Of a stretch of 64,000 nt of DNA, positions 28,358 through 51,400 are shown one piece after another. The notes below the pieces were generated by a model. The model searched no databases. It was not told where the DNA came from and worked only from the letters and a program-made list of their open reading frames with translations. The translations under genes and the position numbers were made by a program. Numbering within the stretch: position 1 is the stretch's first letter; each line of letters starts with the position of its first letter. The DNA comes from Escherichia coli (GTDB lineage Bacteria; Pseudomonadota; Gammaproteobacteria; Enterobacterales; Enterobacteriaceae), in NCBI RefSeq assembly GCF_050920415.1, contig NZ_CP169309.1. One strand, written 5' to 3'.

Positions 28358-28439
28358 GAGCACCGCTTCCATTTATAGAGCAATAGTCACCAGCGTAATT
28401 TTCTGGCACAGTTCAGGGAACTGAAATTTTGGCTAAGGA

Positions 28440-29669: not shown

Positions 29670-30077
29670 TCACCCCGCTCGATGATGACAGCAGCCGGAG
29701 AGATTTTCGATAATTGGGCAGTCGGCGCTGTCATCACCGGGGCAGGCATTCGCCAGCGCCAGTAGCTGGTCGCGCATGGATTGCAGCTCCTCAATGTGCC
29801 GTTCGATCTCCGCTACCTTCTCCAGCGTACGACGTTTGACGTCGGCACTGTGACGCTGCGGATCGTTAAACAGATTCACCAGTTCGCCGCTCTCTTCCAG
29901 GTTAAAGCCCACCTGGCGCGCCTGGCGCAGTAAGGTCAGTTCGTTGAGATGCTGCTGCGTGTAGGTTCGATAACCATTTTCGCTGCGCATCGGCGGCGTC
30001 ACTAGCCCCTTTTCTTCATAGAAGCGAATGGCTTTGCTGGTCAGGCCGGTAATTTTTGCTACATCGCTAATGTTCAT
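29670..30077 (-). CDS. cueR: MerR-family copper-responsive transcriptional regulator
   Basis: 135-aa [29 protein letters not shown]... with C-terminal metal-binding Cys pair (CPGDDSADC), matching recalled CueR. Confidence 0.92.
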
Positions 30078-31249
30078 CGTTCGCGCAACGCCTCCTGTGC
30101 TTTGTTAAAGGGTTTCAACAGATAATCCAGCACGCTTTTTTTGCCGGTGCGGATATCGACCGTCGCCACCATGCCGGGAAATATCGGAAACTGCTGTTTA
30201 TGTTTATTTTCCAGATGGTTGCTGAAAGTGCGAATGTACACCCGATAGTAATAAACATCGCGTCGCACTTCATCCTGCACGGTGTCTGGTGATATCACCG
30301 CCACTTCCCCCGGCAGGCCGCCGTAGATGGAGTAGTCGTAAGCGGTTATTTTCACCAGCGATTTTTGCCCCGGATGGATAAACGCCACATCGCGGGGGGA
30401 GATTTTTGCCTCGATCAACAGTTGCTCATCCAGCGGCACGATAGTCATAAGTTTACCACCGGGGGCGATGACGCCGCCAACCGTGGTGACGTCAATGTCC
30501 TGAACAATGCCTCGCACCGGCGCAGTAAAGTTGAGCCGGGTGAGAGAATCTTCCCGCCCGCGGATCACCGAACGCTGGGTTTCCACTTCCGCATTGGCTT
30601 TCGCTAACTCTTCCCGCGCCTGTACGTAGTATTGCGTACGCACGTCGCTAAGTTTGTTTTCCAGTTCATTGGCCTGGCGTTGCAGGCGCAGCACTTCAAC
30701 GCTGCTCGCCGCCCCCTGTTTCACCAGCGGCTGGGTCATCGCCAGTTCGCGGTTGACCAGGCTGATCCCCTGCGTCAGCCCGGTGGTGGCTTTGTTCAAC
30801 CCGTCGCGGCGAGTGTTATATAACGCCGTTTCCGACTCGATAAGTTCGGGGAATTTATTCAGTTCGTCAGGAAAGACCAGCGGTTTATTGCTCACTTCTG
30901 CCCGCAGCCGCGCCGAGGTTGCCAGCGCCGCATACAGCCGCGACATCGCTTCCTGGACGTCGGATTCCGTTTTGGTGCGGTTAAGCTGCGCCAGCGGCTG
31001 CCCCTGTTCGACAATATCGCCAACCTTCACGTCGAGATGATACAAAATCCCGCCTTCCAGCGACTGCACCACCTGTTCGCGTCCAGAAGGTTCTACCGTG
31101 CCGCTGCCGGTGGTGACTTCATCAAGCTGGAAGTACCACGCCCAGCCGAGAAAACAGAGCAGCATCACAGCGGTAACGCGCACCGCCAGCGCCGAACGTG
31201 GCAGGCGGGGTTCAGTCAGGCCACGGTTGTATTGCAGTTGTCCGTTCAT
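30074..31249 (-). CDS. type I secretion periplasmic adaptor (HlyD-family membrane fusion protein)
   Basis: 391-aa ORF with N-terminal TM segment, coiled-coil and beta-barrel domains; overlaps the ABC gene by 4 bp. Confidence 0.85.
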
Positions 31250-33408
31250 GCGGCAGACCCCTTATTCTTCTCCTGCAACACCACGCGTCGCGTCGTGGGT
31301 TCGCCCTGTTCACGCAAAATGGTCTCTTTCGCGCCGTCCATCACAATGCGCCCCTGATCCATCACAATTATCCTGTCCACCAGTTGCAGCATTGCCGTGC
31401 GGTGAGTAGCGATGACCAGCGTGCGATGCCCAATCCACTGTTTTAGTTGTTCAATTAAATACGCTTCCGCCATTTCATCCAGCGAGGCACTGGGTTCATC
31501 GAGCAGGACGATATTGGGTTGAGAGATGAGCAGCCGCGCCAGCAGCAGCGTTTGCCGCTGGCCGCCAGAAAGACCAAATCCCCCTTCCTGAATCATGTAG
31601 TTAAGGCCGTTTTTCTGCTTCTGCACAAACGGCAGCGCCCCGCTGAGGGTCAACGCGCGTTCGATATCTTCATCGCTGGCTTCTGGCATCCCCATGGTGA
31701 GATTTTCCCGCAGCGAACCGAAGAACAGTCGCCCAGTCTGGCTCAGCAGCCCCATGTCGCGGCGCAGATCCGCCGGATCAAGTTGCCCGATGCTGATGTT
31801 ATCCAGCAGCACCTGCCCCTGCTGGGCGATACGCATTCCGGCGAGCATTTGCAGTAGCGTTGATTTACCCGCGCCGTTGCGCCCGAGAATGGCGATTTTC
31901 TCTCCGGCCTGAATGTTGAGTTTGCCGATCGCCACATCGGCAATCTTCTCTTCTTCGTCGTAATAAAACACCGCGTTGCTGAACTGATAATTTCCGTGCA
32001 GCACTGCTTTATGCACCAGTTTGCCGTGTTCCGGCTGATCCACCGGGCGCTTCATCAGTTCATCAAGGCCATTACGCGCCACTTTCGCCTGCTGCCAGCG
32101 CGAAAGCACGCCGGATATCTGCGACAGCGGCGCAATGGTGCGCGAAGCCAGGATCGTCGTCCCGACCAGCGCGCCGGTGGTCATGTCGCCGCTCATCACC
32201 ATAAAGCAGCCCACCAACAGCACCACCACATAGACGATGGATTGCACTTCCTGCGTCCAGGTGAGCAGCAGCCCGGTGAGAAAACGTTGCTTCATACTGA
32301 TGGACGAGGCCACGTCGTTGGTGTGATTCCACTGATTCTGGAAACGCTGTTCAGCACGCAGCAGTTTAATGTCTTCAATCGACTGCACGGCCTCGACAAG
32401 CGTAGCGTTGCGCACTGCCGATTCGCGCATCCCTTCGTTCGCCAGCCGCGCCAGCGGGCGTTGCACCAGCAGGCCGGGGATCACCAGCAACGGCAGCGCC
32501 AGCAAAACAACCAGCACCAGCCAGCCGCCGATCATCCACAGAATAAAAACAAACAGCAGGAAGAACGGCAGATCCGCCACCGCGCCAATGGTGGTGGAGG
32601 TGATCAGCTCCCGCACCGATTCCAGTTCGCGGATCTGTGAGATAAACGATCCGGTGGATTTCGATCGCACGTTATTTTTCAGCCGTAATGCGTGACCAAA
32701 CACGCGATCCGAAATACGCAGATCCGCCCGTTTGCCGATCACATCGGAAAGGTGTGTGCGCACCATGCGCATACAGAACTCAAACAGGATCGCCATCATC
32801 ACCCCGGCGAACAGCACCCATAGCGTCGGGTAGGACTGCGCCGGAACAACGCGGTCGTAAACCTGCATCGAGAAAATCATCGCCGCCAGCGCCAGCACGT
32901 TCGCCACCAGCGAGGCCAGCATAATATCGCCATAGCGCCGCCAGTCTTTTAGCGAAAGATTCCAGAACCAGTTAGCCTGATACGGGCGAATGTAGTCATC
33001 CACCCGCGCATCGGGGATGGCGCTGAGCGGGCGCAGTAGCGCCAGTTCAACGATTTTGTCTTCTATATCCGTGACGTTTAGCGTAGTTTCCAGCCCTTCG
33101 TCACCGCTGAACTGAACGCTGATATTATCGTGATTGTCGCGGCGGGTGATCACGCCAATCTGTTGATTATCAAACACCGCGATCAACGGCAGACGCCAGG
33201 GGTTAAGCGAATCAGTGGAAAACTCCACCAGCCGTAGCCCCATCCCCAACTGCCGCGCCATGTCGGTGAGCAACTCTTCCCGCTTGCTGTCGCGCTCCCA
33301 GTTGACGGTCGCGCGCACGTTCTCCTGGGAAAAATCGAGGCGGTAATAACGCGCCACGGCGATCATCGCCTCCAGCCAGGCTTCCACGGACTGGGCATTT
33401 TTTTTCAT
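31246..33408 (-). CDS. type I secretion ABC transporter (N-terminal C39-like domain, permease, ATPase)
   Basis: 720-aa ORF with Walker A GRNGAGKST, signature LSGGQRQ and Walker B LLDEPSASLD; about 130-aa N-terminal extension typical of HlyB-type exporters. Confidence 0.88.
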   Translation of the reverse strand: MKKNAQSVEAWLEAMIAVARYYRLDFSQENVRATVNWERDSKREELLTDMARQLGMGLRLVEFSTDSLNPWRLPLIAVFDNQQIGVITRRDNHDNISVQFSGDEGLETTLNVTDIEDKIVELALLRPLSAIPDARVDDYIRPYQANWFWNLSLKDWRRYGDIMLASLVANVLALAAMIFSMQVYDRVVPAQSYPTLWVLFAGVMMAILFEFCMRMVRTHLSDVIGKRADLRISDRVFGHALRLKNNVRSKSTGSFISQIRELESVRELITSTTIGAVADLPFFLLFVFILWMIGGWLVLVVLLALPLLVIPGLLVQRPLARLANEGMRESAVRNATLVEAVQSIEDIKLLRAEQRFQNQWNHTNDVASSISMKQRFLTGLLLTWTQEVQSIVYVVVLLVGCFMVMSGDMTTGALVGTTILASRTIAPLSQISGVLSRWQQAKVARNGLDELMKRPVDQPEHGKLVHKAVLHGNYQFSNAVFYYDEEEKIADVAIGKLNIQAGEKIAILGRNGAGKSTLLQMLAGMRIAQQGQVLLDNISIGQLDPADLRRDMGLLSQTGRLFFGSLRENLTMGMPEASDEDIERALTLSGALPFVQKQKNGLNYMIQEGGFGLSGGQRQTLLLARLLISQPNIVLLDEPSASLDEMAEAYLIEQLKQWIGHRTLVIATHRTAMLQLVDRIIVMDQGRIVMDGAKETILREQGEPTTRRVVLQEKNKGSAA

Positions 33409-33411
33409 TCT

Positions 33412-36400
33412 CTACACCACCATCAACTGATGATTCGCCAGTAAGGTGGCGAGGTCGGTATGCACGCCCGTCAGCGTGACCACGTTAGTTGTCGCAAAGC
33501 CGCCGCCCGTGCCGTCACGGTCGATCTGCACGATGGTGTCGCTGCCGCTCTGGGTGACTTTGACAAAATCACCGATGTTCCCGACCTGGGCATCCAGCGT
33601 TGCCACACCGTTGACATAGCTAGCTTTGCCGTTTCCGGTGTAGCCGCTGCCCTGTAACAGTTCACGAATATCAATGCGATCGGTGTCGGCGGTGCCTTCC
33701 CAGGTGCCTACCGTAAAGCCATTCACCACGTCCGAACCGTTGCCCCCGGTGGCGTCACTGGCGTTAAGCAGTTTATAGAGCAAGGTATCGTGGCCGCCGT
33801 TGCCGATGTTGAGCGTGTCGTTACCGCCGCGCCCTTCCAGTTGGTTATCGCCGCTGCTGCCGGTCAGAGTGTCATTAAAATTCGAGCCGGAAATCCCTTC
33901 GATATTGGTAAATGTCGAGGTATTAAAACCGGTGGCCTGTGCAGTGGTGACGCTTAAGTTAGCGGTGACGCCCACCGTTGAGAGACGGAAATCGACCACG
34001 TCCATGCCGCCGTTCGCCAGCCAGGTTCCTGTGCCGGAGCTGTACACCCAGCCGCCGGAACCGTCGTAGGTGTCGGTGCCTGCGGTGGCGAAGAAGGTGT
34101 CGTTATAGCCAGTGCCGACAAACTTGCCGTTGTTGCTCGCCGTACCCGCTTCAGCACTGAGATCGTAAGCGTGAGTAGCATCGGTGGCCTGTAAGCCGCC
34201 CCATGTGGTGTTTACCGTCTGGTCGATATTGCTGGCGGTAGTACCGGTGGATTTGATCAGCACCGCGTTGTAGGTTTCTCCCGCGTTAAGTCCGTAGAAG
34301 TTGACCAGCGCCGAGGTGTCGTTAACGCCCATTCCCGACTGCGGGTTGATGATTTGTGTCGCCACCAGCACACCCGCCGAGTTGTACAGCTTCACGGTAT
34401 TGCCGTAATAGACGTTAATACCGTTAGGATCGGTGATACGCAGGTGCAGCGAGGTGCCGTAGCTCACCGTGTTGGTGTTGCGGATCAGGAACACGCTGCC
34501 CGACTGTTTGGTCACCAGCACATCCACCGCGCCGTCCCAGTCGTAGTCCATTGCCGCCACGCCGCTGGTAGTGCCGCTCTGGCTGCCACCGAGTGCCGAT
34601 TGTGTCCAGTTACTGGCGTTACTGACGTTGGTATAAAGATACGACTGCCCGGTCTGGGCGATACGGGCGATGTCCATTAACCCGTCATGATCCCAGTCGA
34701 CGGCCAGGCTGAATTGACTGGCGTAGGTGGTTGCCGTCGCGCCGACCGCCACCGGGCTACCCAGCACGCCGTTGGTGTTGAATAACAGCGAGCCGTAGTT
34801 AGCTCTTCCCTGGCTGGCGGGCAGGAAGAGATCCATATCGCCGTCACCATCGAAATCGGCCCATGTCATGGAAACGGATGCCGAGTTTCCCCCCGAGCCA
34901 GGACTACTGAGGAAAGTATTGACGGTGTTTTGTCCCCAGACGAAGGTGCCATTGCCCTGACTTATCAACGATGAGAGGGTGAAGTTGTTGTTCAGGTTGA
35001 AAGTGTGCTGAACCAGATCAATTCTGCCGTCATTATTGAGATCGACACCGGAACCTTCGTTGAGTGACAGATAACCGGTTACCGCCCCACCGACCGTAGC
35101 ACTCCCCCCGTTATTAGCGGTGGTGGAGTTGCCTGTCAGGGTGCCGGCGTTGTTCCACAGGAAGGTATTAGAGTCCGGTCCACCGGCGTCGCCAATCCAG
35201 AAATCAAGATAACCGTCGCCCTCTTTATCGAACGCCACAATCGAGCCATACCACGTCAGGGTGCCAACGTTCACCTGGATGGCGCTGGAAAACGTACCAT
35301 CGCCGTTATTAGTAAAGCCGTTGATATACCCCGTGCCGTAGTCATCACGGGTAATAAACAGATCGCCCGTACCGTTACGGTTGTAATCGGCGATGGAGCT
35401 GGTGGCATAGTTGTTGCCACTTTGCACCAGCGTCAGGGCGGTTTTCGACCAGGTGAGCGGATCGGTGGATTGCATAATTTGCTGGTTGGCCAGCACTGTC
35501 CACATCCCGTGTGTGTCGAGGCCGTAGGTCAGCCCCCATGCGGTGGATTTGCTGGTGGTGGTCCAGGTCGGTGTGTAATCTATCGCCGCGTTAACCGTCA
35601 CCGTGCCAGTGCTGACGTTAGCGGTGTTACCGTTACCCGCCGAGCTTTTTACCTGCGCGGTGACGTTATAGGCGGTCGCAGACGCCGCCAGCGCGTCGGT
35701 ATCCGGCAGTTGCACATACCAGGTGTTGTGCGCCGGATCGACCACCACCGCACCGCCCGGTTGCGAGGTGTAAGTTTTGCCGTTGATCACCACTTCAACA
35801 TACTGCCCACTGGCAAGTGCCGCCGTGATTACGCCGCTGATAATCGGCGTGGTATCGCGTGTGGTTTGATTGGTGATTTGCGCAAGCGTGGTCGGAATAG
35901 AGGTATCGACAGTCAGGATAAAATCGCTGGAGGAGGTGATATTCCCTGCCAGATCCACCACTCGTGCGCTGTAGGTATAGGCACCGCTGACCAGACCACT
36001 GTCGCTGTAAGTCCAGTTCAGCGCGCCGACCATCGTTACCGCACCTAACAGCAGACCGTTACGGTAGAGGTAAACGACTTCACCGCTGGCAAGCGGCGCA
36101 GAGAGCACGCCGTTTAACAGCGGCGTAGTGTCGTCGGTGGCCTGCGAACTGCTTAATGTCCCCTGCCGCTGCCCGACATCATCGGTATACGACACAATGG
36201 TCGGCGTGGCGGTGGGGTTAATCGTATCGACCACCACCGTTTTCGATACCACCGGGCCTGTATTTCCCGCCAGATCCAGCACCCGTACCTGATAAACGTA
36301 GCTGCCGTCGGTCAGCGTGCGGCTGTCAGTGTAAGTCCACTGCGTACCGTTGGTGGTGAGCGTGGTCCAGGTCGCGCCGCCATCGAGGCTAATCTGCGCC

Positions 36401-39400
36401 ACTTCGCCGCTGGCAAGCCCCGCCCCCAGCGAACCGGTCAGCGTGAGCGTGGTATCGCTGGTGATAAAGTCGGTGGCCGAACTCCCCGTATCGGTGCTGA
36501 TGCTGGCGATGGTGAGCACCTGCGCCGGGTTAACGGTGTCAATCTGCGCCGACTGGCTGCCGGTTGCGCCAACGTTGCCCGCTAAATCAACCACCCGCAC
36601 CTGCCAGGTGGTGGTGCCGTTGGTCAGCGTACGCCCGTCCACATATGTCCAGTTCAGACCGTCTGCGGCAACGGTCACGTTCACCCAGGTTGAGCCGTTG
36701 TCGGTACTGATTTGCGCGAACTCATTAGCGCCGAGCGCCGCGCCCAGCACGCCGCGCACGGTAAGCGTGGTGTCGCTGGTAATAAAATCGCTGCTGCTGG
36801 CTCCGGTGTCATCGCTGATACCGGTAATAGTGATGCTTTTCGCCGCTTCCGGGATGATGGTGTCGACCACCACATTTTGCGTCGCGGTCTGCCCGACGTT
36901 CCCCGCCAGATCCACCACCCGCACCGTGTAGTTCCAGGTGCCGTCGGTCAGTGTGCGACCATCGGCATAGCTCCAGCTGGTGCCGATAACGGTTAACGTA
37001 GCCCAGGTAACGCCACCATCAAGGCTGATTTGCGCCCGTTCATCTGCCGCCAGCGCCGCGCCGAGCGTCCCGCGCACGGTCAGCGTAGTGTCACGGGTCA
37101 CAAAATCGCTGCTGCTTAACCCGGTGTCATCGCTGATGCCCGCAATGACGATGGTTTTGCTCGCCAGCGGCGCGGTGGTATCCACGGTGACTATCTGGCT
37201 GGCGGTCGCGCCGATATTTCCGGCGGTGTCGATCACCCGTACCTGATAGTTGTAGTTACCGTCGGTCAGCGTGCGCCCGTCAAGATAAGTCCAGGTTAAT
37301 CCATTTACCGCCAGATTCTGCCAGGTGGTGCCGCCATCGATACTGATTTGCGCGAACTCACCAGCAGAGAGCGCCGCGCCGAGCGTACCACTCACCGCAA
37401 GCGTCGTGTCGCTGGTGACAAAATCATTAGTAATCAGACCTGTATCGGTGGTGATCGCGCTAATGGCGATGGTTTTCACCGCGGGATCTGGCGCAGTAGT
37501 GTCGATCACCACATTCTGGCTATCAGTCGCCCCGACGTTGCCCGCCGCATCAATAACCCGCACCTGATAGAGATAGTTACCATCGGTCAGCGTGCGGCTG
37601 TCGTTATAGCGCCAGGTCGTGCCAGTAACGGTAAGCGTGCTCCAGGTTATACCGCCGTCGATACTGATTTGCGCCGTCTCGTTACTGGCAAGCGCGGCGG
37701 TGAGTGAGCCGTTGACCACCACCGGGCTGACGCTGGTGATAAAGTCGCTGGCGCTAAGGCCAGTGTCGGCTTGCAGGGAATCAATATTAATGCCCATCGC
37801 CGGGGCGCTGAGATCGACGGTAATGGTGTGATTGCTGCTACCGATGTTGCCAATGGCATTGCTCACCGAAGCGTTAATCACATAGGCATTGCCGTCCGCC
37901 AGCGCGGTGACATCGGCGCTGCCGAGGGTGTAGCTCCAGCTACCGCCGGTCTGTACCGTGGTGGTGTAGGTTTTGCCATTTAAGGTCAGGGTTAGCGTCT
38001 GCCCGACCGGTGCGGTCGTGGTGCCGCTGATAACCAAAGACGCGCCGTGTTCCGCCGCGTTCACTACATCATCGCCCGCAAAGGTGTTGATGGTGACGGT
38101 GGGCACGTCGCCATTCAACGTCACGCCACGGCTGGCGCTACCGGGGTTTCCAGCCTGATCGCTGACCGTCGCGCTGATGGTGTAGCTGCCGTCGCTTAAT
38201 CCGGCAAACTGCTGCGCCGGAATAAATACCGACCAGCTTCCGCCACTGCCGACCGTTGCGGTCCAGGTCTGTCCGTTAAAGGTGACGGTGACAGTCTGAC
38301 CTACTTCGGCGGTGGTGGTGCCGCTGATAGTCTGCCCGGCAAGCTGTTCGGCGTTGTTGATAATATCGTCACCCGCAACGGTGGCGATGGTGACCGTCGG
38401 CGCAACGGTGTCAACAGTCAGGGCGTGCGTGGTTTGACCGGGGTTACCGGCGCGATCGTTCACGCTGGCGGTAATGGTCTGCGCGCCTTGCCCGAGTGCT
38501 GCCAGATCCGCCGCAGGCACGTTCAGCGCCCAGGTGCCATTGGCGGCAACCGTGGCGGTATAGGTTTTGCCGCCAAAGGTGACAGTGACCGTCTGCCCCA
38601 CTTCCGCGCTGGTCGAGCCGTTAAGGGTTAACGGCTGCTGCTGTTCGGCGGCGTTGAGTCGGTCATCCGTCGAAACGGTATTAATGTTGATAACCGGTGC
38701 GGTGAGATCCACCGCCACGCTGCGCGAGGCCGTGGCGCTGTTTCCTGCGCTGTCCTGGGCGGAGGCGCTAACCGTGTAGCTGGTGCCATCCGCAAGTGCC
38801 GCGACGTCTGCCGCCGACACATTCACGCTCCAGCTCCCGTTGTTCTGAATGGTGGCGCTGTAGCCCTTGCCATTAAGCAACACGGTCACCACCGTGCCTG
38901 TCGCGAAATTAGTGCCAGTGCCGCTCAGGGTCAGCGCACTGCCTGCTTCGGCGGCGTTAATAATATTATCGCCACTGATGGTGCTGACTGAGAGCGACAC
39001 CACCGCCGTATTGACCTGCACGTTGTGCGTCTGCGTGCTGCTGTTGCCTGCGCTGTCGGTGATGGTGGCGCTGATGGTCACCGTGCCGTCTGCAAGGCCG
39101 GAAACCACGCTGGCTGGCACGCCAACGCTCCAGTTGCCGCTGGCATCGGTGCTGGTGACATACTGCAGCCCGGCGATGGTCACCACCAGGCGGTCACCCG
39201 CCACCGCGCCCGTGGCGGTGCCGCTGATAATCTGCGCCTGAGAGTGTTCGACGTTGTTAATCACGTCATCGCCTGCCACGGTGTTGAAGCTGATGACGGG
39301 CGCGGTGGTATCGACGGTGACGCCTTTGCTGGCGCTGCCAGGGTTACCCGCCAGATCGCTGACCGTGGCGGTCAGGGTGTAGCCGTTATTAGCAAGTGCG

Positions 39401-42400
39401 GTTAAGTCACTGGCAGGCAGCGTTAAGCTCCAGCTGCCGTCTGCCTGCACCGTGGTCTGGTAGTTAGTGCCGTTTAGCGTGACGGTGAGCGTTTGCCCGG
39501 TTTCCGCGGTGCTGGTGCCGGACACCGTGACGCCCGCCGCCGCTTCGCTGGCGTTGATGATGTTATCGCTGGCAATGGTGTTGATGGTCACCGTTGGCGC
39601 AGCGCTATCGATGCTGTATTCATGCGTTGCCGTGGCGCTGTTGCCGTTGACGTTAGTCACCCGTACCTGGGCGCTGGCATCGCCGTCACGAAGAGCCGCC
39701 ATATCCGCTGCCGGAACGGTGGTGCTCCAGCTACCGTTTGCCGCCACCGTGGTGGTGTAGGTTTTGCCGCCAAAGGTAATAGTAACGGTTTGCCCCGCTT
39801 CGACGCCGGACGTGCTGCCGGAAAGCGTTAGCGCCGCGCCTTTTTCGGCGGCGTTAATCACATCATCAGGGGTAATAGCGTTAATGCTGATGGCGACGGT
39901 AGTGAGATCAACGCTCAGCGGATGGGTAATGCTGGTTTGCGTTCCGGCACTGTTCGCGCCGCTAACGGTAATATTCAGCGTTCCCGCAGGCCAGTTACTG
40001 ACATCCGCCGCCGGAATGCCGACGCTCCAGGTGCCGTTCGCCAACACCGTGGCGGCATAAGTTTGGTTATTTATCACCACGGTCAGCGCCGTGCCTGCCG
40101 TAAAGCCGGAGCTGCTCCCGGTAATCACCTGCGCCTGAGCGTGTTCGATGATATTGACCACATCATCTCCTGCGACGGTATCCACCCGCAGACCGGGCAG
40201 ACTGGCATCGATGGTGATATCGCGCGTGCTGCTGCCGGTGTTGCCAACGGCGTTGGTCACCGAGGCATTAACCGTTAATTCACCGTTACCCAGCGCCTGC
40301 CAGTCGGCGGCAGGCACGCTCACATTCCAGCTTAAATCTGGCTGGACGGTGGCGGTGTAAGTTTTACCGCCCAGCGTAACGGTGACGGTGCTGCCCGCCG
40401 CCGCACCGGTTACCTGGCCGCTGATGGTTTGCGCGCTGCCCGCCTCTGAAGCGTTGATAATATCGTCCGTCGCCACCGGATTGATGGTGACGCCCGGCAG
40501 CGCGGTATTGACCTGTACGTTATGGCTGGCGGTGCTGCTGTTGCCCTGAGCGTTGGTAACGCTCGCCGTGACGCTGTAGGTGGCTTCGCCAAGCGCACTG
40601 ACCGCCGAGGCGGGCACGGTGACGCTCCAGTTGCCGGAGGCGTCGGTAGTGGCGCTGTAGTTTTGTCCATTCAGCGTGACGGTGATCGCCGTACCCGCAG
40701 GCTGATCGCTGGTGCCGGAAAGCGCCAGATCAGATCCTTTTTCCGTCGCGTTGATCACGTCATCGCCCGCGATGGTGTTGATGCTAATCGCTGGCGCGGT
40801 GAGGTTAACAGTGACGGTTCGGCTGGCGTCGTCGCTGTTGCCCGCCCTATCGCTAACGCTGGCGGTGATGCTCTGTGCGCCGCTACCGAGCGCCGTAACA
40901 TCCGCCGTCGGTACGCCAACGCTCCAGTTACCGGAGGCATCCAGCGTCGTGGTATACGTTTTGCCATTGAGCACAACGCTCACCACATCGCCCGCTTCCC
41001 CGCCCGTGCTGGTACCGGAGATCACCAGCGCCTGGGCGTGTTCGGCGTCGTTGATGATGTCATCGCCCGCCACGGTGTTAATGGTGAGAACCGGCGCGGT
41101 GGTGTCTACCGCCAGATTATGGCTGGCGCTGCCGGGATTGCCCGCTTTGTCGTTGACCGTGGCGCTGACGGTGTAATTGCTTGCAGTCAGAGCGCCCAGG
41201 GCTGAAGTGGGAACGCTGACGCTCCAGCTACCGTCCGCCTGTACATTGCCGGTGTAGGTTGCGCCGTTAAGAGTGACGGTCACCGTCTGTCCGGTTTCGG
41301 CGGTGCTGGTGCCGCTGATGGTGAGCGGGCTTCCGGCTTCCGTGGCGTTAAGAATATCGTCGCTGGCGATGGTGTTAATGGTGAGCGTCGGTGCGCTGGC
41401 GTCAACGCTATACGCATGAGTTGCCGACGCGCTGTTGCCGCTCGCGCTGCTGACACTGGCCTGCACGTTCGCCGCGCCGTCTGGCAAGGTTGCCAGATCT
41501 GCCGCTGGAACGTTCACGCTCCAGCTACCGTTAGCGGCGACGCTTGCGGTGTAGTTTTTGCCGCCAAAAGTGACGGTAACGGTTTGCCCACTTTCAATTC
41601 CGCTGGTGCTGCCAGAAAGGGTCAGATTGGTGCCTTTTTCGGCGGCGTTAATCACGTCGTCGCTGGCAACGGTGTTGATGCTGATTGCCACCGCCGTTAA
41701 ATCGACGGTGAACGGATGGCTGACGCTGACCGGGTTTCCGGCGCTGCTCTGGCCTGCCACCTCAACGGTTAACGGCCCCGCAGGCCAGGCGCTGACGTTT
41801 GCCGCTGGAATGCCGACGCTCCAGCTCCCGTCTGCCTGTACCGTGGCAGAATAAGCCACACTGTTGATGGTAACCGTCAGCACAGTACCTGCATTCAGGC
41901 CACTACTGCCACCAGTGATCACCAGTGCCTGACCATGCTCGATGCTGTTGACGATATCATCGCCCGCCACGGTATCCACCCGCAGCCCCGGCAGGTTGGC
42001 ATCAATGGTGATATCCCGCGTGCCGCTGCCGGTGTTGCCATTCGCGTTGGTGACCGAGGCGTTAATGGTCAAATCGCCATTTCCCAACGCCTGGAGATCG
42101 GCTGCCGGAACGGTGACGCTCCAACTTAAGTTGCCCTGTACCGTAGCGGTGTAAGTGTTACCGCCCAGCGTCACGGTGACTGTATCGCCTGCGGCGGCGC
42201 GGGTCACCACCCCGCTGATGGTTTGATCGGCCCCGGCTTCGGCGGCGTTGATAATATCGTCGTCAGCCACGGTATTGATGGTGACGCCTGGCAGGCCGCT
42301 GTCGACCAGTAAATTCGCCTGGCTGCTGGCGGTGTTGCCTGCCGCACTGGTGGCGCTGGCGCTGACGGTATAGTTAGCCTGACCTAAGGCCGCCAGATCG

Positions 42401-45400
42401 CTCACCGGTACGGTTAAGGTCCAGTTGCCTGCTGCGTCGGTGGTAGCGCTGTAGTTATGACCGTTGAGCGTGACGGTAACCTGTGCGCCGGTCGCCAGCC
42501 CCGTACTGCTACCGCTGATGGTCAACGGCTGGCCTTTTTCATCGGCGTTCAGGACGTTATCGCTGCTGATGGCGTTAAAGGTAATGGTCGGCAGCCCGGT
42601 ATTGACCGTCACCTGATGGGTGGCGCTGCCGCTGTTTCCGGCGGCGTCAGTGACGCTGGCGTTAATGGTCACCGTGCCGTTTGCCAGTGCCGAAACAACG
42701 CTTGCCGGGACGCCGACGCTCCAGTTGCCGCTGGCATCCAGCACCGTGGTGAAGGTATTTGTGCCGATAGTCACCGTCACGGTGTTACCGGTTGCCGCAC
42801 CCGTGGCGGAGCCGCTGATAATCTGCGCCTGGGCGTGTTCCGTCGCGTTGATCACATCATCACCCGCGACAGTGTTGATGGTGACGACCGGAACGGAAGT
42901 ATCCACCGTCAGGTTGTGGTTAACCGAGGTCGGGTTTCCGGCCTTGTCGCTCACCGCCGCGCTGACGGTGTAGATGCTGGCGGTCAGAGCGCTTAAGTCG
43001 GCTGGCGGTACGCTGATACTCCAGCTGCCGTCCGTTTGTACCGTGCCAGTATAGTTTGCGCCATTGAGCGTGACGGTCACCGTCTGCCCGGCTTCCGCCG
43101 TGCTGCTGCCAGTGATGGTCAGCGCCGCACCCGCTTCGGCGGCGTTAAGAATATCGTCGCCCGCAATGGTGTTAATGGTCACCGTTGGCGCGGTGGCATC
43201 GACGCTGTAAGCGTGGGTAGTGGTGGCACTGTTGCCGTTAACGTTGCTGACGCTGGCCTGTGCGCTGGCATCGCCATCACGCAGGGCCGCCATATCTGCC
43301 GCCGGAACCGTGGTGCTCCAGGAACCATTCGCCGCGACGCTTGCCGTGTAGGTTTTGCCGCCAAAGGTCACGGTGACCGTTTGTCCGGCTTCGACGCCGG
43401 AAGTGCTGCCGGAGAGCGTTAACGCCGCGCCTTTCTCAGCGGCGTTAATCACATCATCGGCGGTAATGGCGTTGATGCTGACCGCCACCGCCGAGAGATC
43501 GACAGTCACCGGATGGGTGACGCTGACCGGGTTTCCGGCAGTAGTGCTGCCGCTCGCCGTAATCGTCACCGCCCCCGCAGGCCAGGCGCTGACATCCACC
43601 GCCGGAACGCCGACGCTCCAGGTGCCATCCGCCAGTACCGCCGCAACATAGGTTTGCCCACTGATGGTCAGCGTGACGTTGCTGCCCGCTGCCAGACCGG
43701 AGCTGCTGCCGGTAATCACCAGCGCCTGATCGTGCTCGATAATGTTGACCACATCATCGCCCGTCACGGTGTCAATCCGCAGACCGGGCAAATTCGCGTC
43801 TATGGTGATTTCACGCGTGCCGTTGCCGGTATTGCCTACGCTGTTTGTCACCGAGGCCGAAATGGTCAGTTCACCGTTGCCCAGCGCCTGTAACGCCGGG
43901 GCCGGAACATCGACGCTCCAGCTAAAATCCGCCTGCACCGTGGCGGTGTAAGTCGCCCCGCCGAGCGTGACGGTCACCGTGTCGCCAGCCGCAGCACCCG
44001 TGACCAGCCCGTTGATAGTTTGATCTGCCCCTGCTTCGGCAGCGTTAATAATATCGTCCGTTGCCACAACGTTAATGGTGACGCCCGGCAGCGCGGTATT
44101 AACCTGCACGTTATGGCTGGCGGAACCGCTGTTACCATCGGTGTCAGTGGCGGAAGCGGTCACCGTATAACTGGCTTCACCGAGGGCGCTCACCCGTGAC
44201 GCCGGAACAGTCACGCTCCAGTTCCCGGAAGCATCGGCAGTGGTGGTGTAATTTTGCCCGTTGAGCGTAACAGTTACCTGCGTGCCCGCAGGCTGGTTGC
44301 TGGTGCCGGAAATCGACAGATCCGCGCCTTTCTCCGTGGCGTTGATGATGTCATCGACGGCGATGGTGTTAATGGCGAGTATCGGTGCACCGAGCGCCAC
44401 GCTGACAGTGTGCGAGGCCGTGCCGCTGTTGCCTGCGGAGTCGGTAACCGTGGCGGTAATGGTCACATCGCCCTGGGCCAGCGCGGAAATCACGCTGGCA
44501 GGCACACCGATGCTCCAGTTGCCGTTGGCGTCCAGCACGGTGGTGTAGGTGGTCGAGCCAATCGTCACGGAAACCGTGTTACCCGTCGTCGCGCCCGTTG
44601 CCGAGCCGCTGATAATCTGCGCCTGAGCATGTTCCGTGGCGTTAATCACGTCATCGCCCGCTACCGTGTTAATGGTGACGACCGGAGCGGCAAGGTCTAC
44701 CGTCAGGTTATGCGTTGCCGAGGCCGGATTTCCGGCTTTGTCGCTTACCGAGGCGTTGACGGTATACGAGCTGGCAGTGAGGTTAGCTAAATCGCCAGTT
44801 GGTACGCTGACGCTCCAGCTCCCGTCTGCCTGCACGTTGCCGCTGTAATTGATGCCGTTTAGCGTCACGGTCACTGTCTGCCCGGCTTCTGCGGTGCTGG
44901 TGCCGCTGATAGTCAGCGCCGATCCCGCTTCGGCGGCATTAAGAATATCGTTGCTGGCAATGGTGTTGATGGTGACGGAGGGCGCGGTGGCATCGACGCT
45001 ATAAACATGCGTTGCCTGGGCGTTGTTACCCGCGACGTTGCTGACGCTGGCCTGGACGTTTGCTGCGCCATCCGGCAAGGTTGCGAGATCGGCGGCTGGG
45101 ATCGTCAGCCCCCAGGTATTATCCGCGGCAACCGTGGTGGTGTAGCTTTTGCCACCGAAAATAACGGTAATGGTCTGCCCCGCTTCCACGCCGGAGGTGG
45201 TGCCGGAAAGCTGCAAATCAGTGCCTTTTTCGGCGGCGTTTATTACATCGTCAGTGGAGAGTGTATTGATGGTAATCGCCACGGCAGCGAGATTGACCGT
45301 GACCGGATGAGTAATGCTGGTTGTGGTTCCTGCGGTATTGGTGCCAGAGACGGCAATATTAACCGTCCCCGCAGGCCAGTCAGCCACGTCCGCTGCCGGA

Positions 45401-48400
45401 ACGCCGACGCTCCAGGTGCCATCGGCGAGTACCGTTGCGCCGTAGGTGACGTTGTTGATGACTACCGTCAACGCCGCGCCCGCCGCCAGTCCGCTACTGC
45501 TACCGGTGACCACCAGCGCCTGAGTGTGCTCAATGCTGTTAATCACATCATCGCCTGCCACGGTATCGACCCGCAGGCCTGGCAGATTGGCGTCTATCAC
45601 GATGTCGTGCGTTGCGGTGCCAGTATTATTTGCGGAATTAGTCACCGAGGCGCTGATGGTCAGTTCACCGTTACCCAGCGCCTGCAAATCTGCCGCAGGC
45701 ACGCTGACGCTCCAGCTTAAATCTGGCTGCACGGTGGCAATGTATTGATTACCACCAATAGTGACAATCACCGTATTCCCCGCAACCGCCGTCCCCGTAA
45801 CCTGTCCGCTGAGGGTCTGGTTAACGGCGATTTCAGCGGCGTTGATAATGTCATCACCCGCCACAGTATTAATGATTACCCCTGGCAGGAGCGATTCGAC
45901 ATTCACCGTATGGGTAGTACTACCGCTGTTACCCGCGCTGTCGGTGGCGCTGGCGCTAATCGAATAAACCGCCTCGCCCAGTGCGCCGACCGCCGAAGCC
46001 GGCACGGTAACGCTCCAGTTGCCGGAGCCGTCGGTGGTGGCGCTGTACGCCAGGCCGTTCAACATCACGGTGACCGTAGTGCCTGCCGCCAGGCCGCTGG
46101 AGACGCCGCTGATGATCAGATCCTGGGTTTTCTCCGCATTATTAATAATGTCATCACCGGAGACAGTGTTAATGGTCAGCGTCGGGCCACTGAGATCAAC
46201 GGTCACATCGTGAGTCGTGCTGTCGCTGTTGCCCGCGCGATCGCTCAGGCTGGCGGTGATGGTCTGGCTACCGGTTGCCAGTGCCGTGACATCCGCCGCC
46301 GGAATACCCACACTCCAGTTACCGGAGGCGTCCAGCGTTGTGGTGTAGTTTTTACCGTTCAGCGTGACGGTCACCACATCGCCTGCCGCCGCGCCCGTAC
46401 TGGTTCCGCTCACCACCAGCGCCTGCCCGTGTTCGATGGCGTTGATAATGTCATCGCCCGCGACGGTGTTAATGGTGAGATCCGGCGCGGTCACGTCCAC
46501 CGCCAGTGCATGATCCGCGCTTGCCGGATTGCCCGCTTTGTCGCTCACCGTGGCGGTCACGGTATAACTGCTGGCGGTTAATCCGCTTAAATCTGTCGCC
46601 GGAACGTTCACACTCCAGGTGCCATCGGCCTGGACGGTAGTCTGGTACGTGTTGTTATTGAGCGTGACAGTCAGCGTCTGCCCGGCCTGCGCCGTGGTGG
46701 TGCCGCTGATGGTTATCCCCGCGCCCGCTTCGCTCACGTTGAGAATATCGTCGCTGGCGATGGTGTTGATGGTCACAAGCGGCGCGGTGGCATCGACGCT
46801 GTACGCGCGATCGGCCTGGGCGCTGTTGCCGTAAATGTTGCTGACACTCGCCTGCACGTTGCCCGCGCCGTCCGGCAACGCAGCGAGATCGGCAGGCGGC
46901 ACATTCACCGTCCAGCTACCGTTGGTTTCCACAGTGGTGGTGTAATTTTTGCCGCCAAAGGTGACGGTCACCGTCTGCCCGGCTTCTACACCGCTGGTAC
47001 TGCCGCTCACCACCAGCGTTTCGCCTTTTTCGACGGCATTGATCACATCATCGCCGGAGAGAGTGTTAATGGTTATGGCGACCGCCGCCAGATCGACGGT
47101 AACCGGATGGGTAATGGTGGAGGTTGTTCCGGCACTGTTGGTGCCGCTTACCGTGATATCCACCGTACCCGCAGGCCAGTTGCTGACGTCTGCCGCCGGA
47201 ACGCCGAGGTTCCATGTGCCGTCGGCTAACACCGTGGCAGCGTAAGTGACGTTGTTAATCACGACCGTTAATGCCGTTCCTGCCGTCAGCCCGGTGCTGC
47301 TACCTGTTATCACCAGCGCCTGATTGTGCTCAATGCTGTTAATAACATCATCGCCCGCTACGGTATCGACCCGCAAACCAGGCAGATTGGCATCGATCGT
47401 AATATCGCGCGAGCCGCTGCCGGTATTACCAACGTCATTGGTGACCGAGACGTTAACTGTCAGGTCGCCGTTACCCAGCGCCTGAATATCCGCCGCTGGA
47501 ACGCTAACACTCCAGCTTAAATTAGCCTGCACCGTGGCGGTGTAGGTGTTGCCGCCCAGCGTGACGGTAACCGTATCCCCCTGCGCTGCGCCCGTGACCT
47601 GGCCGCTGATGGTCTGGGCGTTACCAGATTCAGCGGCGTTAATAATATCGTCAGTCGCCACTGCGTTAATGGTGACGGCAGGCAAGGCGCTGTTGACCAG
47701 CACATTATGGCTGGCGGAATTACTGTTGCCTGCCGTATCAGTGACGTTCGCGGTTACTGTGTAGTTAGCTTCACCCAACGCGCTAACCGCTGACACTGGC
47801 ACCGTGGCGCTCCAGTTGCCACTGCTATCGGTGGTAGCGGTGTAATTTTGTCCGTTCAGCGTCACTGTAATGGTGGTGCCTGCGGGCTGATTACTGGTGC
47901 CAGTAATTTGCAGATCCGCGCCTTTTTCTGTGGCGTTAATCACGTCATCGCTGGCGATAGTGTTGATGCCAATGGTTGGCGCGGTGAGATTTACGGTGAC
48001 CGTGCGGCTGGCATCATCGCTGTTGCCTGCCGCATCGGTAATGGCCGCAGTGATGGTTTGCGGGCCGCTGCCCAGCGCAGTGACGTCTGCTGCCGGAACG
48101 CCGACGCTCCAGTTGCCGGAGGCGTCCAGCGTGGTAGTGTAGGTTTTACTGTTTAACGTGATGGTGATGACATCGCCCGCTTCGCCGCCAGTGCTGGAAC
48201 CGGAGATCACCAGCGCCTGTCCGTGTTCGGCGGCGTTAATGATGTCATCGCCGGAGACGGTGTTAATGGTTAAAACTGGCACGGTGAGATCCACCGCCAG
48301 GCCGTGAGTGGCGGTCGCCGGGTTACCCGCTTTGTCGCTTACCGAGGCGCTGACCGTGTACGGGCTGGCGGTCAGATTGCTGAGATCTGTTGTCGGCACG

Positions 48401-51400
48401 CTGACGCTCCAGCTACCGCCCGCCTGAACGGTGCCGATGTAAGCCACACCATTAAGCGTGACGGTTACCGTTTGCCCCGCTTCGGCGGTGCTGGTGCCGC
48501 TGATGGTTAACGGATTTCCCGCCTCAGCGGCGTTAAGAATATCGTCGGTGGCGATGGTGTTAATGGCAAGCGTCGGGGCCGTGGCATCGACGCTATAGGC
48601 GTGGGTTGCCGAAGCCGTGTTGCCGTTAATATTGCTGACACTGGCCTGTACCGTGGCGTCGCCGTCACGTAACGCGCTGAGATCGGCGGTGGGTAGCGTA
48701 GTTGTCCAGCTACCATCGCCCGCTACGGTAGCGATATAGGTTTTGCCGCCAAAGGTGACGGTGACGGTTTGCCCCGCTTCCACGCCGGAAGTGCTGCCGG
48801 AAAGGGTTAAATCTGCCCCTTTTTCGGCGGCGTTAATCACATCATCGCCGGAAACGGTGTTAATGGAGATCGCCACCGCCGCCAGATCGACGGTGACCGG
48901 ATGGGTGATGGTGGAGGTTGTTCCGGCAGTGTTAGTGCCGCTTACCGTGATATCCACCGTCCCCGCAGGCCAGTTGCCCACATCTGCCGCCGGAACGCCA
49001 ACGCTCCATGTGCCATCGGCTAATACTGTCGCGCCATAGGTGACGTTATTGATCACCACCGTCAGCGCCGCGCCCGCCGCCAGCCCGCTGCTGCTACCGG
49101 TTATCACCAGTGCCTGACCGTGCTCGATGCTGTTAACCACATCATCGCCCGCCACGGTATCAACGCGCAGACCTGGCAGATTGGCATCTATCACAATATC
49201 GCGCGCACCGCTGCCAGTATTACCCACGCCGTTGGTTACCGAGGCGTTAACTGTCAGGTCGCCATTACCGATGGCCTGAATATCCGCCGCCGGAACGTCC
49301 ACGCTCCAGCTAAAATTGCCCTGCACAGTAGCGGTGTAGGTTTTCCCGCCAAGCGTCACGGTAACCGTATCGCCCGCCGCCGCGCCCGTCACCTGGCCGC
49401 TGATGGTCTGCGCCACGCCCGATTCCGCCGCGTTAATAATATCGTCGGTCGCCACCGGATTAATGGTGACACCCGGCAGCGCGGTATTCACCTCCACGTT
49501 ATGGCTGGCGGAATTGCTGTTGCCCGCGCTGTCGGTGACGTTCGCCGTCACCGTGTAACTGGCTTCGCCCAGCGCACCGACGGCAGAGGCTGGCACCGTG
49601 GTGCTCCAGTTGCCTGCGGCGTCCGTCGTGGCGGAGTAATTTTGCCCGTTAAGCGTCACCGTAATTGTGGTGCCTGTTGGCTGATTACTGGTGCCGGAAA
49701 TTTGCAGATCCGCGCCTTTTTCCGTGGCATTAATCACGTCATCGCTGGCAATGGGGTTGATGCCAATGGTCGGCGCGGTAAGGTTAACGGTGACCGTGTG
49801 CGTCTCGTTGTCGCTGTTGCCAGCCACATCGGTAACGGTCGCCGTCACGGTTTGCGGGCCGCTGCCCAGCGCAGAGACATCCGCAGCCGGAACGCCGACG
49901 CTCCAGTTGCCGGAGGCATCCAGGGTGGTGGTGTAGGTTTTATTGTTTAGCGTGACGCTGACGATATCGCCCGCCTCCCCGCCAGTGCTGGAACCGGAAA
50001 TCACCAGCGCCTGCCCGTGTTCGGCGGCGTTAATAATATCATCGCCCGCAATGGTGTTAATGGTCAGTACCGGAACGGTGAGATCCACCGCCAGATTATG
50101 CGTGGTGCTCGCCGGGTTGCCCGCTTTGTCATTAACCGTGGCGGTCAGGGTGTGGCTGCCATCCGTCAATGCCTCAAGGTCTGCCGCCGGAATAGTAATA
50201 CTCCAGCTGCCGTCGGCCTGTACCGTTGCCTGATAGGTCTGCACGGTCGGGCTATTGAGCGTTACCGTAACAATCTGCCCCGCTTCAGCGGTGGTGGTGC
50301 CGCTCACCGTCACACCCGCATCGGCTTCGCTGGCGTTGACGATATTGTCGCTGGCGACGGTATTGATAATGATGGTTGGCGCGCTGCTATCGACGCTGTA
50401 GTTATGCACCGCCGAGGCGCTATTGCCATTGATATTGCTGACGCTGGCCTGCGCGGAGGCGCTGCCCTCAGGTAATGCTGCCAGATCGGCGGCAGGAACG
50501 GTGGCAGTCCAGCTACCATCGCTCGCCACGCTGGCGGTGTAATTTTTCCCGCCAAAGGTGACGGTGACGGTTTGACCGGGTTCTACATTCGTGGTGGTGC
50601 CGGAAAGGGTTAAATCAGCGCCTTTTTCTGCGGCGTTAATCACGTCGTCCGTAGCGATGGTGTTGATGGTGATCGCCGCTGGCGTGAGATCGACCGTTAC
50701 CGGATGCGTAATGCTTATCGGATTTCCGGCGCTACTTTCCCCGGACACAGTAACCGTCACTGTTCCCGCAGGCCAGGCGCTAACCTGCGCCGCCGTGACG
50801 CCCACGCTCCAGCCACCATCGGCCAGCACCGCAGTGGTGTATTCCACATTGTTAATCATAACGGTAAGCGGCGTGCCTTCTGCCAGCCCCGAGCTGCTGC
50901 CGCTGACCACCAGCGCCTGCCCGTGTTCGATGATATTGACCACATCATCACCCGCCACCGTATCGACCCGCAGACCGGGCAGATTGGCGTCGATGGTGAT
51001 ATCCCGCGTGCCGCTGCCGGTGTTGCCGTTTTGATTGGTGACCGAGGCGCTCACCGTTAAATCACCATTACCCAGCGCCTGAATATCCGCCGCCGGAACG
51101 CTCACGCTCCAGCTTAAACCGGCCTGCACGGTGGCGGTGTAAGTATTACCGCCAAGCGTAACGGTTACCGCGTCGCCAACGGCGGCTCCGGTAACCTGCC
51201 CGCTGATGGTTTGCGCAACGCCCGCTTCGGCGGCGTTAATAATATCGTCGGTTGCCACCGGGTTAATGGTCACGCCGGGCAACGCGCTGTCGACCAGCAT
51301 GTTATGGCTGGCGGTGGCGCTGTTACCGATACCGCTGGTCACTGCTGCTGTCACCGTATAGTTGGCCTGGCCCAAGGCGGTTACCGCCGATGCCGGAACG

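Follow-up and report, generated by a model that had tools for sequence, protein, structure and literature searches.

RTX adhesins of the MpIBP, LapA and FrhA type have several features in common with SiiEA, the E. coli giant adhesin described here: a type I secretion system (T1SS) operon, an N-terminal retention-type domain and a long Ca2+-stiffened extender of Ig-like repeats. In both, non-repetitive domains directly precede an RTX block of small size, and the chain ends in a secretion signal of the TIGR03661 family. The tip of LapA is a vWA domain. The tips of these proteins are described as sugar-binding, peptide-binding, vWA or ice-binding modules, whereas SiiEA carries a propeller. [quoted passage not shown] Neither "propeller" nor "FG-GAP" is mentioned in a recent survey preprint of RTX adhesins. 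Salmonella SiiE is likewise a giant T1SS adhesin, with 53 BIg domains compared with 53 stalk repeats in SiiEA, and the name siiEA derives from this resemblance, but SiiEA is not a SiiE ortholog. SiiE has a different N-terminus and uses SPI-4 accessory proteins, and it is not known to contain an FG-GAP propeller or an RTX block. Salmonella BapA has its N-terminal BapA_N domain in common with SiiEA by profile. In EHEC, deletion of O-island 28 (OI-28) or its genes reduces adherence and mouse colonisation, and Ca2+ raises both (PMC12758282). The locus is reported to be required in the early stage of EHEC adherence. The same O157 paper names only "RTX" and "Ig-like" domains, without a propeller.

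The window analysed, a 64,000-nucleotide stretch of the Escherichia coli chromosome, contains a single intact open reading frame of 6,924 codons on the minus strand (33412-54186; all features below are on this strand). The product is named "BapA-related adhesin SiiEA" in RefSeq (siiEA, WP_000052497.1), and siiEA is also the annotation of the gene in E. coli MFDS1022581, in which the window is 100% identical. The N-terminal 229-residue NCBIfam model NF047714 (adhesin_SiiEA) scored 511.5 bits against a curated cut-off of 425. The protein is the known SiiEA giant adhesin of OI-28. Its locus, positioned between ybaT and cueR together with TolC, ABC and HlyD genes, is common to O157:H7. The T1SS genes adjoin the adhesin gene with tight spacing. 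The ABC transporter gene (31246-33408; ABC_membrane and ABC_tran, annotated in RefSeq as a type I secretion system permease/ATPase) starts 3 nt past the adhesin stop codon and is followed by a membrane-fusion gene of the HlyD family (30074-31249; HlyD_3, HlyD_D23 and RefSeq annotation), while a TolC-family outer-membrane gene (54295-55650; OEP 158.9 bits and RefSeq annotation) lies upstream of the adhesin. A secretion domain, an RTX β-roll, adjoining ABC/HlyD/TolC-like genes and an Ig-like extender, features of T1SS-exported RTX adhesins, are thus all present.

The N-terminal end (residues 1-187, 53626-54186) resembles a BapA prefix of the retention type (Pfam BapA_N, 70 bits; NF033677, 66.5 bits) and includes the short motif TAAG at residues 97-100, a candidate di-alanine LapG site. 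Neither lapG (Peptidase_C93) nor lapD, the genes associated with the locus in LapG/LapD-regulated adhesins of the LapA type, was found among the scanned ORFs of the window or in the annotated 44-kb region. The term "LapA/SiiE-type", applied in a preliminary description of this region, is loose: the family is that of SiiEA, a BapA_N-prefixed RTX adhesin.

The stalk is composed of 53 tandem, Ca2+-stabilised Ig-like repeats of ~100 aa and of the MpIBP type (residues ~188-5464, 37795-53625). An HMM of the stalk repeat recovered 53 copies at 80-150 bits (residues 190-5462, period 98-102 aa), but the seven Ig-like units that come after them reached no more than 6-23 bits. Ca_tandemer scored 104.7 bits on one stalk unit, and the stalk matched the MpIBP RII tetra-tandemer (PDB 4p99) with an E-value of 3.6e-51. 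The change from stalk to distinct repeats, which the preliminary description had noted, is sharp. It falls at nt 37794 (residue 5465), so that the boundary of 37900 given there was some 100 nt too far into the stalk. The last ~1,460 of the 6,924 residues follow this switch and are arranged as seven Ig-like domains, a propeller, a small β-sandwich and two RTX β-rolls, with a T1SS domain at the C-terminus.

Five of the seven Ig-like domains are near-identical 106-aa repeats with the pattern DTG...ISxDGGxTW...VRVxDxAGN (residues 5465-5994, 36205-37794), on which an HMM built from the repeat itself scored 158-172 bits; DTGLSASDF and DTGLSSSDF, motifs of the kind quoted earlier, begin at residues 5474 and 5687. 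The sixth is divergent (residues 5995-6099, 35890-36204; Big_13 42.9 bits and a β-sandwich in the AF2 model), scoring 47 bits with the same HMM (6006-6099), and the seventh is very divergent (residues 6100-6199, 35590-35889), with 4 bits (6105-6199), and is predicted with confidence by AF2 to be a β-sandwich. Scanned alone, the seventh domain gave no Pfam match, with Ca_tandemer at 30.4 bits falling under its cut-off. The earlier count of about six repeats of ~105 aa was a fair one. The repeats are Ig-like, belong to one superfamily with the stalk repeats and do not represent a new fold. The Big_13 profile was matched at E 6e-81 in 8 stretches, well above chance like the other profile matches of this region, and the five close copies scored 53.9 bits with Big_13 compared with only 20.3 bits with Ca_tandemer. 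Among solved structures, they match SiiE BIg50-52 best (PDB 2yn3, E 8.9e-6). Modelled together by AF2 (pLDDT 94.7), the last three Ig domains also match SiiE BIg50-52 best (PDB 2yn5, E 1.4e-11 over 307 columns).

The Ig-like domains are followed by a seven-bladed FG-GAP β-propeller (residues ~6201-6573, 34468-35586). FG-GAP_3 scored 81 bits on the tip (E 7e-23, 6 stretches), and the AF2 model of the tip shows seven propeller blades and then β-rolls (pLDDT 88.2, pTM 0.91). Six Ca2+-loop motifs of the Dx[DN]xDG type start at residues 6267, 6320, 6382, 6444, 6497 and 6547, and the Asp-rich sequences that had been listed for this region are among them or beside them (LNNDGRIDLV at 6383, DFDGDGDMDLF at 6444, DWDHDGLMDI at 6497 and DYDWDGAVDV at 6547). 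Profile searches and structure prediction of the C-terminal tip, the two computational checks that the preliminary description had put forward for an integrin-like, Ca2+-binding propeller followed by RTX repeats, recovered both, so that its observation is confirmed and its interpretation supported.

A small β-sandwich follows the propeller (residues ~6574-6659, 34210-34467), at the position of the UnbV/ASPIC domain in the animal protein CRTAC1 (cartilage acidic protein 1/ASPIC; PDB 9etn). In the AF2 model, the propeller and β-sandwich together have the shape of CRTAC1, with a superposition that takes in the β-sandwich (533 columns, 432 residues). SiiEA and CRTAC1 have in common an FG-GAP β-propeller with Dx[DN]xDG Ca2+ loops, but their sequences are only 15% identical, and the UnbV_ASPIC profile (PF07593) found no match in SiiEA or across 36 relatives; when the post-propeller segment alone was compared with UnbV_ASPIC by hhalign, the result was E 0.044 with Prob 1.2%, and the UnbV/ASPIC assignment does not hold in sequence. 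Unlike CRTAC1, SiiEA carries Ca2+ motifs in six of its seven blades, and its tip is not known to have an EGF domain. In contrast to CRTAC1 and the bacterial CRTAC1-family proteins with FG-GAP plus UnbV_ASPIC, the SiiEA module is not a free-standing secreted protein but lies at the far end of a T1SS substrate of 6924 aa. The integrin α propeller is also built of seven FG-GAP blades with DxDxDG-type Ca2+ hairpins, and integrin headpieces matched the tip model significantly in Foldseek (E ~2e-8), but scored under CRTAC1. The Ca2+ loops of integrins occupy only three or four blades. Integrin α further differs in having a β-subunit partner, an I-domain and thigh/calf legs. The SiiEA propeller is followed by a β-sandwich, RTX rolls and a T1SS signal, and a gene like that of a β-subunit was not found in the SiiEA locus by Pfam scan or RefSeq annotation. 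This class of adhesin, the siiEA gene and its part in adherence have all been published; only the likeness of the tip to CRTAC1 seems to have gone undescribed.

The RTX-like region consists of two short β-roll segments (residues ~6660-6818, 33733-34209) and is short and degenerate, with one strict GGxGxDxUx nonapeptide, three relaxed and approximately four degenerate ones, and none in SiiEA before residue 6600. HemolysinCabind exceeded its cut-off of 23 when the tip was scanned alone (25.2-30.5 bits) and fell under it on a 1695-aa fragment (21.1 bits). The AF2 model shows a strand periodicity of ~9 residues, and the region matches the RTX blocks of CyaA (E 5e-5) and, by Foldseek, serralysin PrtC (PDB 1k7g, E 2.2e-6). 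The glycine/aspartate nonapeptides noted previously are thus borne out, as is the secretion signal proposed for the C-terminal tail. The last ~105 residues scored 32.1-32.7 bits with TIGR03661 (T1SS_VCA0849), against a cut-off of 17.6, and correspond to a curated T1SS target domain that spans residues ~6819-6924 (33415-33732, with the stop codon at 33412-33414).

Between E. coli alleles, strong purifying selection acts on the tip, with dN/dS below 0.1: in comparison with the O157:H7 allele, dS is 0.2-0.6 and dN/dS 0.00-0.08 in every tip domain, and protein identity is 92-100% (100% in the ASPIC-like domain). The propeller protein, at 93.8% identity, hardly differs from one E. coli allele to another and thus gives no sign of diversifying selection, a point against a ligand-recognition role. 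Variability within the tip is highest in blades 1-2, and the ASPIC-like and RTX parts are the most conserved, as would be expected if a conserved scaffold carried a recognition surface. The allele in the window represents a minority lineage (18/958 genomes) and has five near-identical DTG repeats, compared with four in O157. In the O157:H7 genome examined, the 6720 codons of siiEA are interrupted by a stop at codon 1462, and the gene carries a pseudogene flag. The "two RTX proteins" of O157 are the two parts of this single broken gene, a point that bears on the reading of the published mutant and complementation data. Given this internal stop, an intact tip may be dispensable in the O157 lineage. 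The unit from propeller to C-terminus has relatives with 36-58% identity in Enterobacter, Pluralibacter, Acinetobacter and Pseudomonas, and also ends BapA_N/Big_13 giant ORFs of Diaphorobacter and Limnobaculum. Salmonella proteins were absent from the homologs of the tip and N-terminus in a database consisting mostly of fragments of giant proteins.

The explanation that best fits these data, to which we assign a probability of roughly 0.7, is that this region is the distal, first-exported end of SiiEA and that the propeller, possibly with the seven distinct Ig domains, forms a putative ligand-recognition end for attachment to host or other surfaces. By analogy with established RTX proteins, the C-terminal domain would engage the ABC transporter and the chain would leave the cell unfolded, C-terminus first. 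Extracellular Ca2+ would then fold the RTX rolls, followed by the propeller and the Ig domains, blocking back-sliding and stiffening the stalk. With the BapA_N end predicted to stay at the outer membrane, the CRTAC1-like module would be held roughly 0.3 micrometre off the cell. The tip is a candidate "ligand-binding end" by its position and by analogy with other RTX adhesins. The biochemistry of the CRTAC1 family is poorly defined, so the fold match predicts no ligand.

The seven SiiE-like Ig domains might instead constitute a lectin-like binding region, with the propeller/ASPIC module serving mainly as a Ca2+-dependent folding nucleus and export cap, an arrangement that we consider unlikely. 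[quoted passage not shown] In published O157 work, constructs that had only two Ig-like domains partly restored adherence (PMC12758282), which at face value points to the Ig repeats over the propeller, and six Ca2+ loops with RTX rolls would make a strong Ca2+-folding unit. However, SiiE BIg domains match the stalk better (62.5 compared with 28.9 bits), so resemblance to SiiE is not special to the seven, and a copy number that differs between alleles, like that of the DTG repeats, typifies spacer domains. A two-domain module of 460 residues that is conserved in both β- and γ-proteobacteria also exceeds what a folding cap requires, since RTX rolls alone suffice in other T1SS substrates.

It is also improbable, in our estimation, that the tip makes bacterium-to-bacterium or matrix contacts in biofilms or aggregates, as in the BapA/Bap family, rather than binding a host receptor. 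The N-terminus and curated name of SiiEA belong to the BapA/Bap/LapF prefix family, the tip is also found in environmental genera without a common animal host, among them Diaphorobacter, Acinetobacter, Pseudomonas and Limnobaculum, and near-invariance of the protein between E. coli alleles would fit a conserved self or matrix ligand; against this, Caco-2 adherence and mouse colonisation are lost in O157 OI-28 mutants. Propeller enzymes are found among the fold matches (aldos-2-ulose dehydratase, 4a7y; virginiamycin B lyase, 2z2n), and annotations link bacterial FG-GAP/ASPIC proteins to biosynthesis, for example as "enediyne biosynthesis protein E4", but a catalytic propeller on the adhesin stalk, such as a polysaccharide lyase or hydrolase that remodels the surface, is very improbable.

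Many pathogenic E. coli have no protein larger than SiiEA. The domain map for the putative ligand-recognition end selects ~460 residues (~6201-6659, propeller and β-sandwich) for expression in screens of binding to glycans, extracellular matrix or cells, and for the development of ligand mimics or blocking antibodies. We tentatively suggest, as a possibility short of even odds, that the CRTAC1-like propeller and β-sandwich represent a previously unrecognised class of RTX-adhesin ligand-binding module and act as the receptor-recognition head of the OI-28 adhesin in early EHEC adherence. If so, the module would be a well-defined target open to blocking, and the CRTAC1 fold, whose biochemistry is still obscure, could be approached through a bacterial protein.

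The C-terminal region of the giant adhesin (nt 33412-37900) is 100% identical to that of E. coli MFDS1022581, the window being E. coli chromosome, and in that strain the gene of 20,775 nt is annotated as "siiEA, BapA-related adhesin SiiEA" (WP_000052497.1). The siiEA ORF (33412..54186, minus strand) encodes 6924 residues and lies between ybaT and cueR, with a TolC-family gene upstream (54295-55650) and, downstream, an ABC transporter gene (31246-33408), which starts 3 nt past the adhesin stop, and an HlyD-family adaptor gene (30074-31249). The locus is O-island 28 (OI-28) of EHEC O157:H7, described in 2025 as a T1SS/RTX adhesion system that is switched on by RstA and Ca2+, with early adherence and mouse colonisation depending on the island (PMC12758282). 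ORF coordinates and RefSeq annotation both give a 4-nt overlap (ATGA, 30074-30077) between the stop codon of the HlyD-family gene and the start codon of cueR; as the island runs into cueR without a gap, the two may be co-transcribed. Between ybbJ and cueR lies a second insertion (25934-29669), encoding on the plus strand a 338-aa protein that bears a YadA membrane anchor (26662-27678) and a 409-aa ORF without a Pfam match (28440-29669), and also holding small hypothetical ORFs. Within window 8000-15555, vgrG/tssI (13117-15555, minus strand) is followed by a low-GC stretch (32-41% GC) that contains five ORFs of 172-323 aa without Pfam matches; this stretch may hold cargo of the T6SS effector/immunity or Rhs type. 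Two long plus-strand ORFs inside the adhesin gene (35422-36048 and 36350-36931; 208 and 193 aa) are most likely antisense artefacts of GC-rich repetitive coding DNA.

All of the motifs quoted in the preliminary description were found at the C-terminal end of the protein, and the switch it proposed from an Ig-like array to distinct repeats is real and sharp, since the scores of two repeat HMMs split at residue 5465 (nt 37794). The stalk-repeat HMM detects 53 copies, at a period of 98-102 aa, across residues 190-5462 (80-150 bits) and gives just 6-23 bits on the seven further units, while an HMM of the unit DTG...ISxDGGxTW...VRVxDxAGN scores 158-172 bits on five close copies (residues 5465-5569, 5571-5675, 5677-5782, 5783-5888 and 5890-5994) and at most about 10 bits anywhere within the stalk. 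With a sixth copy at 47 bits (6006-6099) and a seventh at 4 bits (6105-6199), the earlier count of about six is reasonable. Stalk units are of the Ca_tandemer type (104.7 bits) and match the MpIBP RII tetra-tandemer (4p99, E 3.6e-51); the distinct unit matches Big_13 at 53.9 bits and Ca_tandemer at only 20.3 bits. An AF2 model of residues 5890-6210 (pLDDT 94.7) contains three β-sandwiches, and therefore the weak seventh unit is predicted to be an Ig-like domain as well. Every 106-aa repeat (window 36205-37794) carries an Asp-box-like S-x-D-x-G-x-T-W motif (ISLDGGVTW), with Pfam BNR/Asp-box reaching 30.9 bits summed over the fragment; the repeat domains are Ig-like, not sialidase-type propellers.

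Beyond the repeats, Pfam FG-GAP_3 (PF13517), formerly named VCBS, covers residues 6190-6555 in six stretches (81 bits). This Asp-rich region holds six Ca2+-loop motifs, DYNRNGTGD (6267), DKEGDGYLD (6320), DLNNDGRID (6382), DFDGDGDMD (6444), DWDHDGLMD (6497) and DYDWDGAVD (6547), all of them acidic at position 9. We gathered 117 tip homologs, aligned 35 of them with the query (alignment A1) and modelled residues 6190-6924 (mean pLDDT 88.2, pTM 0.91). The model places 29 strands at model residues ~12-384, forming seven four-stranded blades and one extra strand, with each Ca2+ motif in the strand 1-2 hairpin of blades 2-7. A six-strand β-sandwich follows directly (model 385-470), then runs of short strands with ~9-residue periodicity that form β-rolls (~498-534 and ~567-614), and a small α/β C-terminal domain ends the tip. 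The top match in a Foldseek search against the PDB is murine CRTAC1 (9etn_A, E 1.9e-14, 533 columns, TM 0.61 on the target), followed by BBSome propellers, integrin alpha headpieces (E ~2e-8), ITFG2 and UmbA4; the RTX part matches serralysin PrtC. The suggested integrin-like propeller is right in kind, with CRTAC1 the closer relative.

Distant sequence relatives of the tip are bacterial proteins with FG-GAP and UnbV_ASPIC (PF07593), some of them named "CRTAC1 family", and a profile-profile comparison of A1 with 14 such proteins aligns tip residues 70-466 with the Ca2+ loops in register (Prob 99.5%, E 5.5e-23). PF07593 was absent by Pfam from the sandwich segment, from the tip and from all 36 aligned members (query and relatives), and hhalign of the sandwich segment by itself against UnbV_ASPIC was not significant (E 0.044), so that UnbV_ASPIC is rejected at the sequence level. 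Because these tests failed, the ASPIC label is one of position and fold: the modelled sandwich is best described as "ASPIC-position, CRTAC1-like by fold", not as a Pfam-defined member.

The RTX-like block with glycine/aspartate nonapeptides (residues ~6660-6818) is borne out by both profile and pattern and, like most such blocks in RTX adhesins, is short. HemolysinCabind (cut-off 23) reaches 25-30 bits in scans of the tip or of its last third, falling to 21.1 bits on a 1695-aa fragment; a pattern scan recovers one strict GGxGxDxUx nonapeptide, three relaxed and about four degenerate ones, and none upstream of residue 6600. Among solved sequences the tip matches CyaA RTX blocks only (E 5e-5). 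The expected C-terminal secretion tail is also present, the last ~105 residues matching TIGR03661, "type I secretion C-terminal target domain" (32 bits, cut-off 17.6). Judged by sequence, the protein carries every sequence-testable feature of an RTX adhesin and is matched by the curated SiiEA model (511.5 bits, cut-off 425).

We compared the tip codon by codon with the O157:H7 allele of the locus. Synonymous divergence is large (dS 0.2-0.6, locally saturated), yet dN/dS stays below 0.1 and protein identity is 94-100% despite the DNA divergence of the island. Values of dN/dS are 0.07 for the five near-identical repeats, 0.01-0.06 for repeats 6-7, 0.07 for the propeller, 0.05 for the RTX block and 0.08 for the tail; the ASPIC-like domain is 100% identical in protein (dN/dS 0.00). 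We count low dN/dS despite large dS as a sign of a functional tip, and the overall propeller value of 0.07 leads us to reject diversifying selection there. The most variable propeller patch between E. coli alleles, residues 6400-6439 (window 34869-34988, 9 of 40 differing), comprises the outer strands of blade 4 and a long lower-confidence loop into blade 5; because dS is saturated there, it looks like older or mosaic divergence, not positive selection. Of 5426 complete E. coli genomes, 958 carry the C-terminal region, and the window allele (31246-37900) is a minority lineage, with tip DNA at least 95% identical in just 18 of the 958; most of the 958 are 86-87% identical to the window in propeller DNA and ~94% in ABC gene DNA. 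This island divergence speaks for old allelic lineages or for the island having been acquired more than once. At 36841-37794 the alleles also differ in copy number of the 106-aa repeat, five in the window versus four in O157:H7, a clean 106-residue gap at residues 5612-5717. The O157:H7 allele, flagged as a pseudogene, has one internal stop (codon 1462 of 6720) that parts the retention end from the secreted end, and because of this stop the two RTX proteins published for O157 are most simply read as halves of one siiEA gene.

Among 34 relatives from outside E. coli, identity to the query is lowest in blades 1-2 (22-23%) and highest in the ASPIC-like and RTX parts (54-57%). Tip homologs stop exactly at the C-terminus of the query, the tip module recurs after giant BapA_N/Big_6/Big_13 ORFs in Diaphorobacter and Limnobaculum, and N-terminal relatives share genera with tip relatives (Enterobacter, Pluralibacter), which together we take as evidence for a modular tip. 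In Limnobaculum, T1SS-type genes adjoin the tip-bearing adhesin ORF. No Salmonella entries occurred among the tip and N-terminal homologs, the matches being fragments of at most ~1270 aa, and the window adhesin is not an ortholog of Salmonella SiiE; a survey of Salmonella T1SS offers no domain-level description of the BapA C-terminus. The window adhesin also differs from LapA-type adhesins, at least within the window: neither lapG nor lapD was found among the ORFs scanned or the annotated flanks in the 64-kb window, and LapG/LapD control is rejected on that scope. A TAAG at residues 97-100 (window 53887-53898), inside the BapA_N prefix-like domain, resembles the di-alanine LapG site of LapA-type adhesins.

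Already public are the gene and the name of its family, an FG-GAP/VCBS annotation on relatives, and the effect of the locus on adhesion. A reading of the tip as two CRTAC1-like domains seems not to have been published: the OI-28 paper names RTX and Ig-like domains only (PMC12758282), and neither propellers nor FG-GAP come up in a recent survey preprint on RTX adhesins. The mentions of "SiiEA" found in the literature are at annotation level.

RTX proteins are exported with the C-terminus leading, and in CyaA and HlyA the folding of RTX rolls under Ca2+ works as a ratchet. SiiEA has its domains in the order stalk, distinct repeats, propeller, sandwich, RTX block and tail, with T1SS genes adjacent; by analogy its tail would engage the ABC transporter and its RTX rolls would fold first outside the cell, followed by the sandwich, the six-Ca2+ propeller and then the 60 Ig domains, with the BapA_N end predicted to stay at the outer membrane. 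Ca2+ stiffens the Ig domains of SiiE (PMC5466336) and, according to PMC5550230, Ig extenders more generally; there MpIBP, with more than 130 domains, is put at 0.6 micrometre; scaled from MpIBP, the 60 domains would hold the tip ~0.3 micrometre out.

Binding might be done instead by the SiiE-like Ig domains. The best solved match of the modelled last three Ig domains is SiiE BIg50-52 (2yn5, E 1.4e-11, 307 columns), and by sequence the distinct repeats match 2yn3, also BIg50-52, at E 8.9e-6 (28.9 bits). The stalk repeats match 2yn3 better (62.5 bits), which removes a special SiiE kinship of the distinct repeats as a sequence argument and assigns all 60 Ig domains, by sequence, to one BIg superfamily. 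Alternatively, the ligand might come from bacteria or matrix instead of a host, or, much less probably, the propeller might act as an enzyme. We infer that the propeller is the candidate ligand-binding head of SiiEA because it sits at the distal end, because of the parallel with other RTX adhesins, and because it sets variable blades on a scaffold that is conserved.
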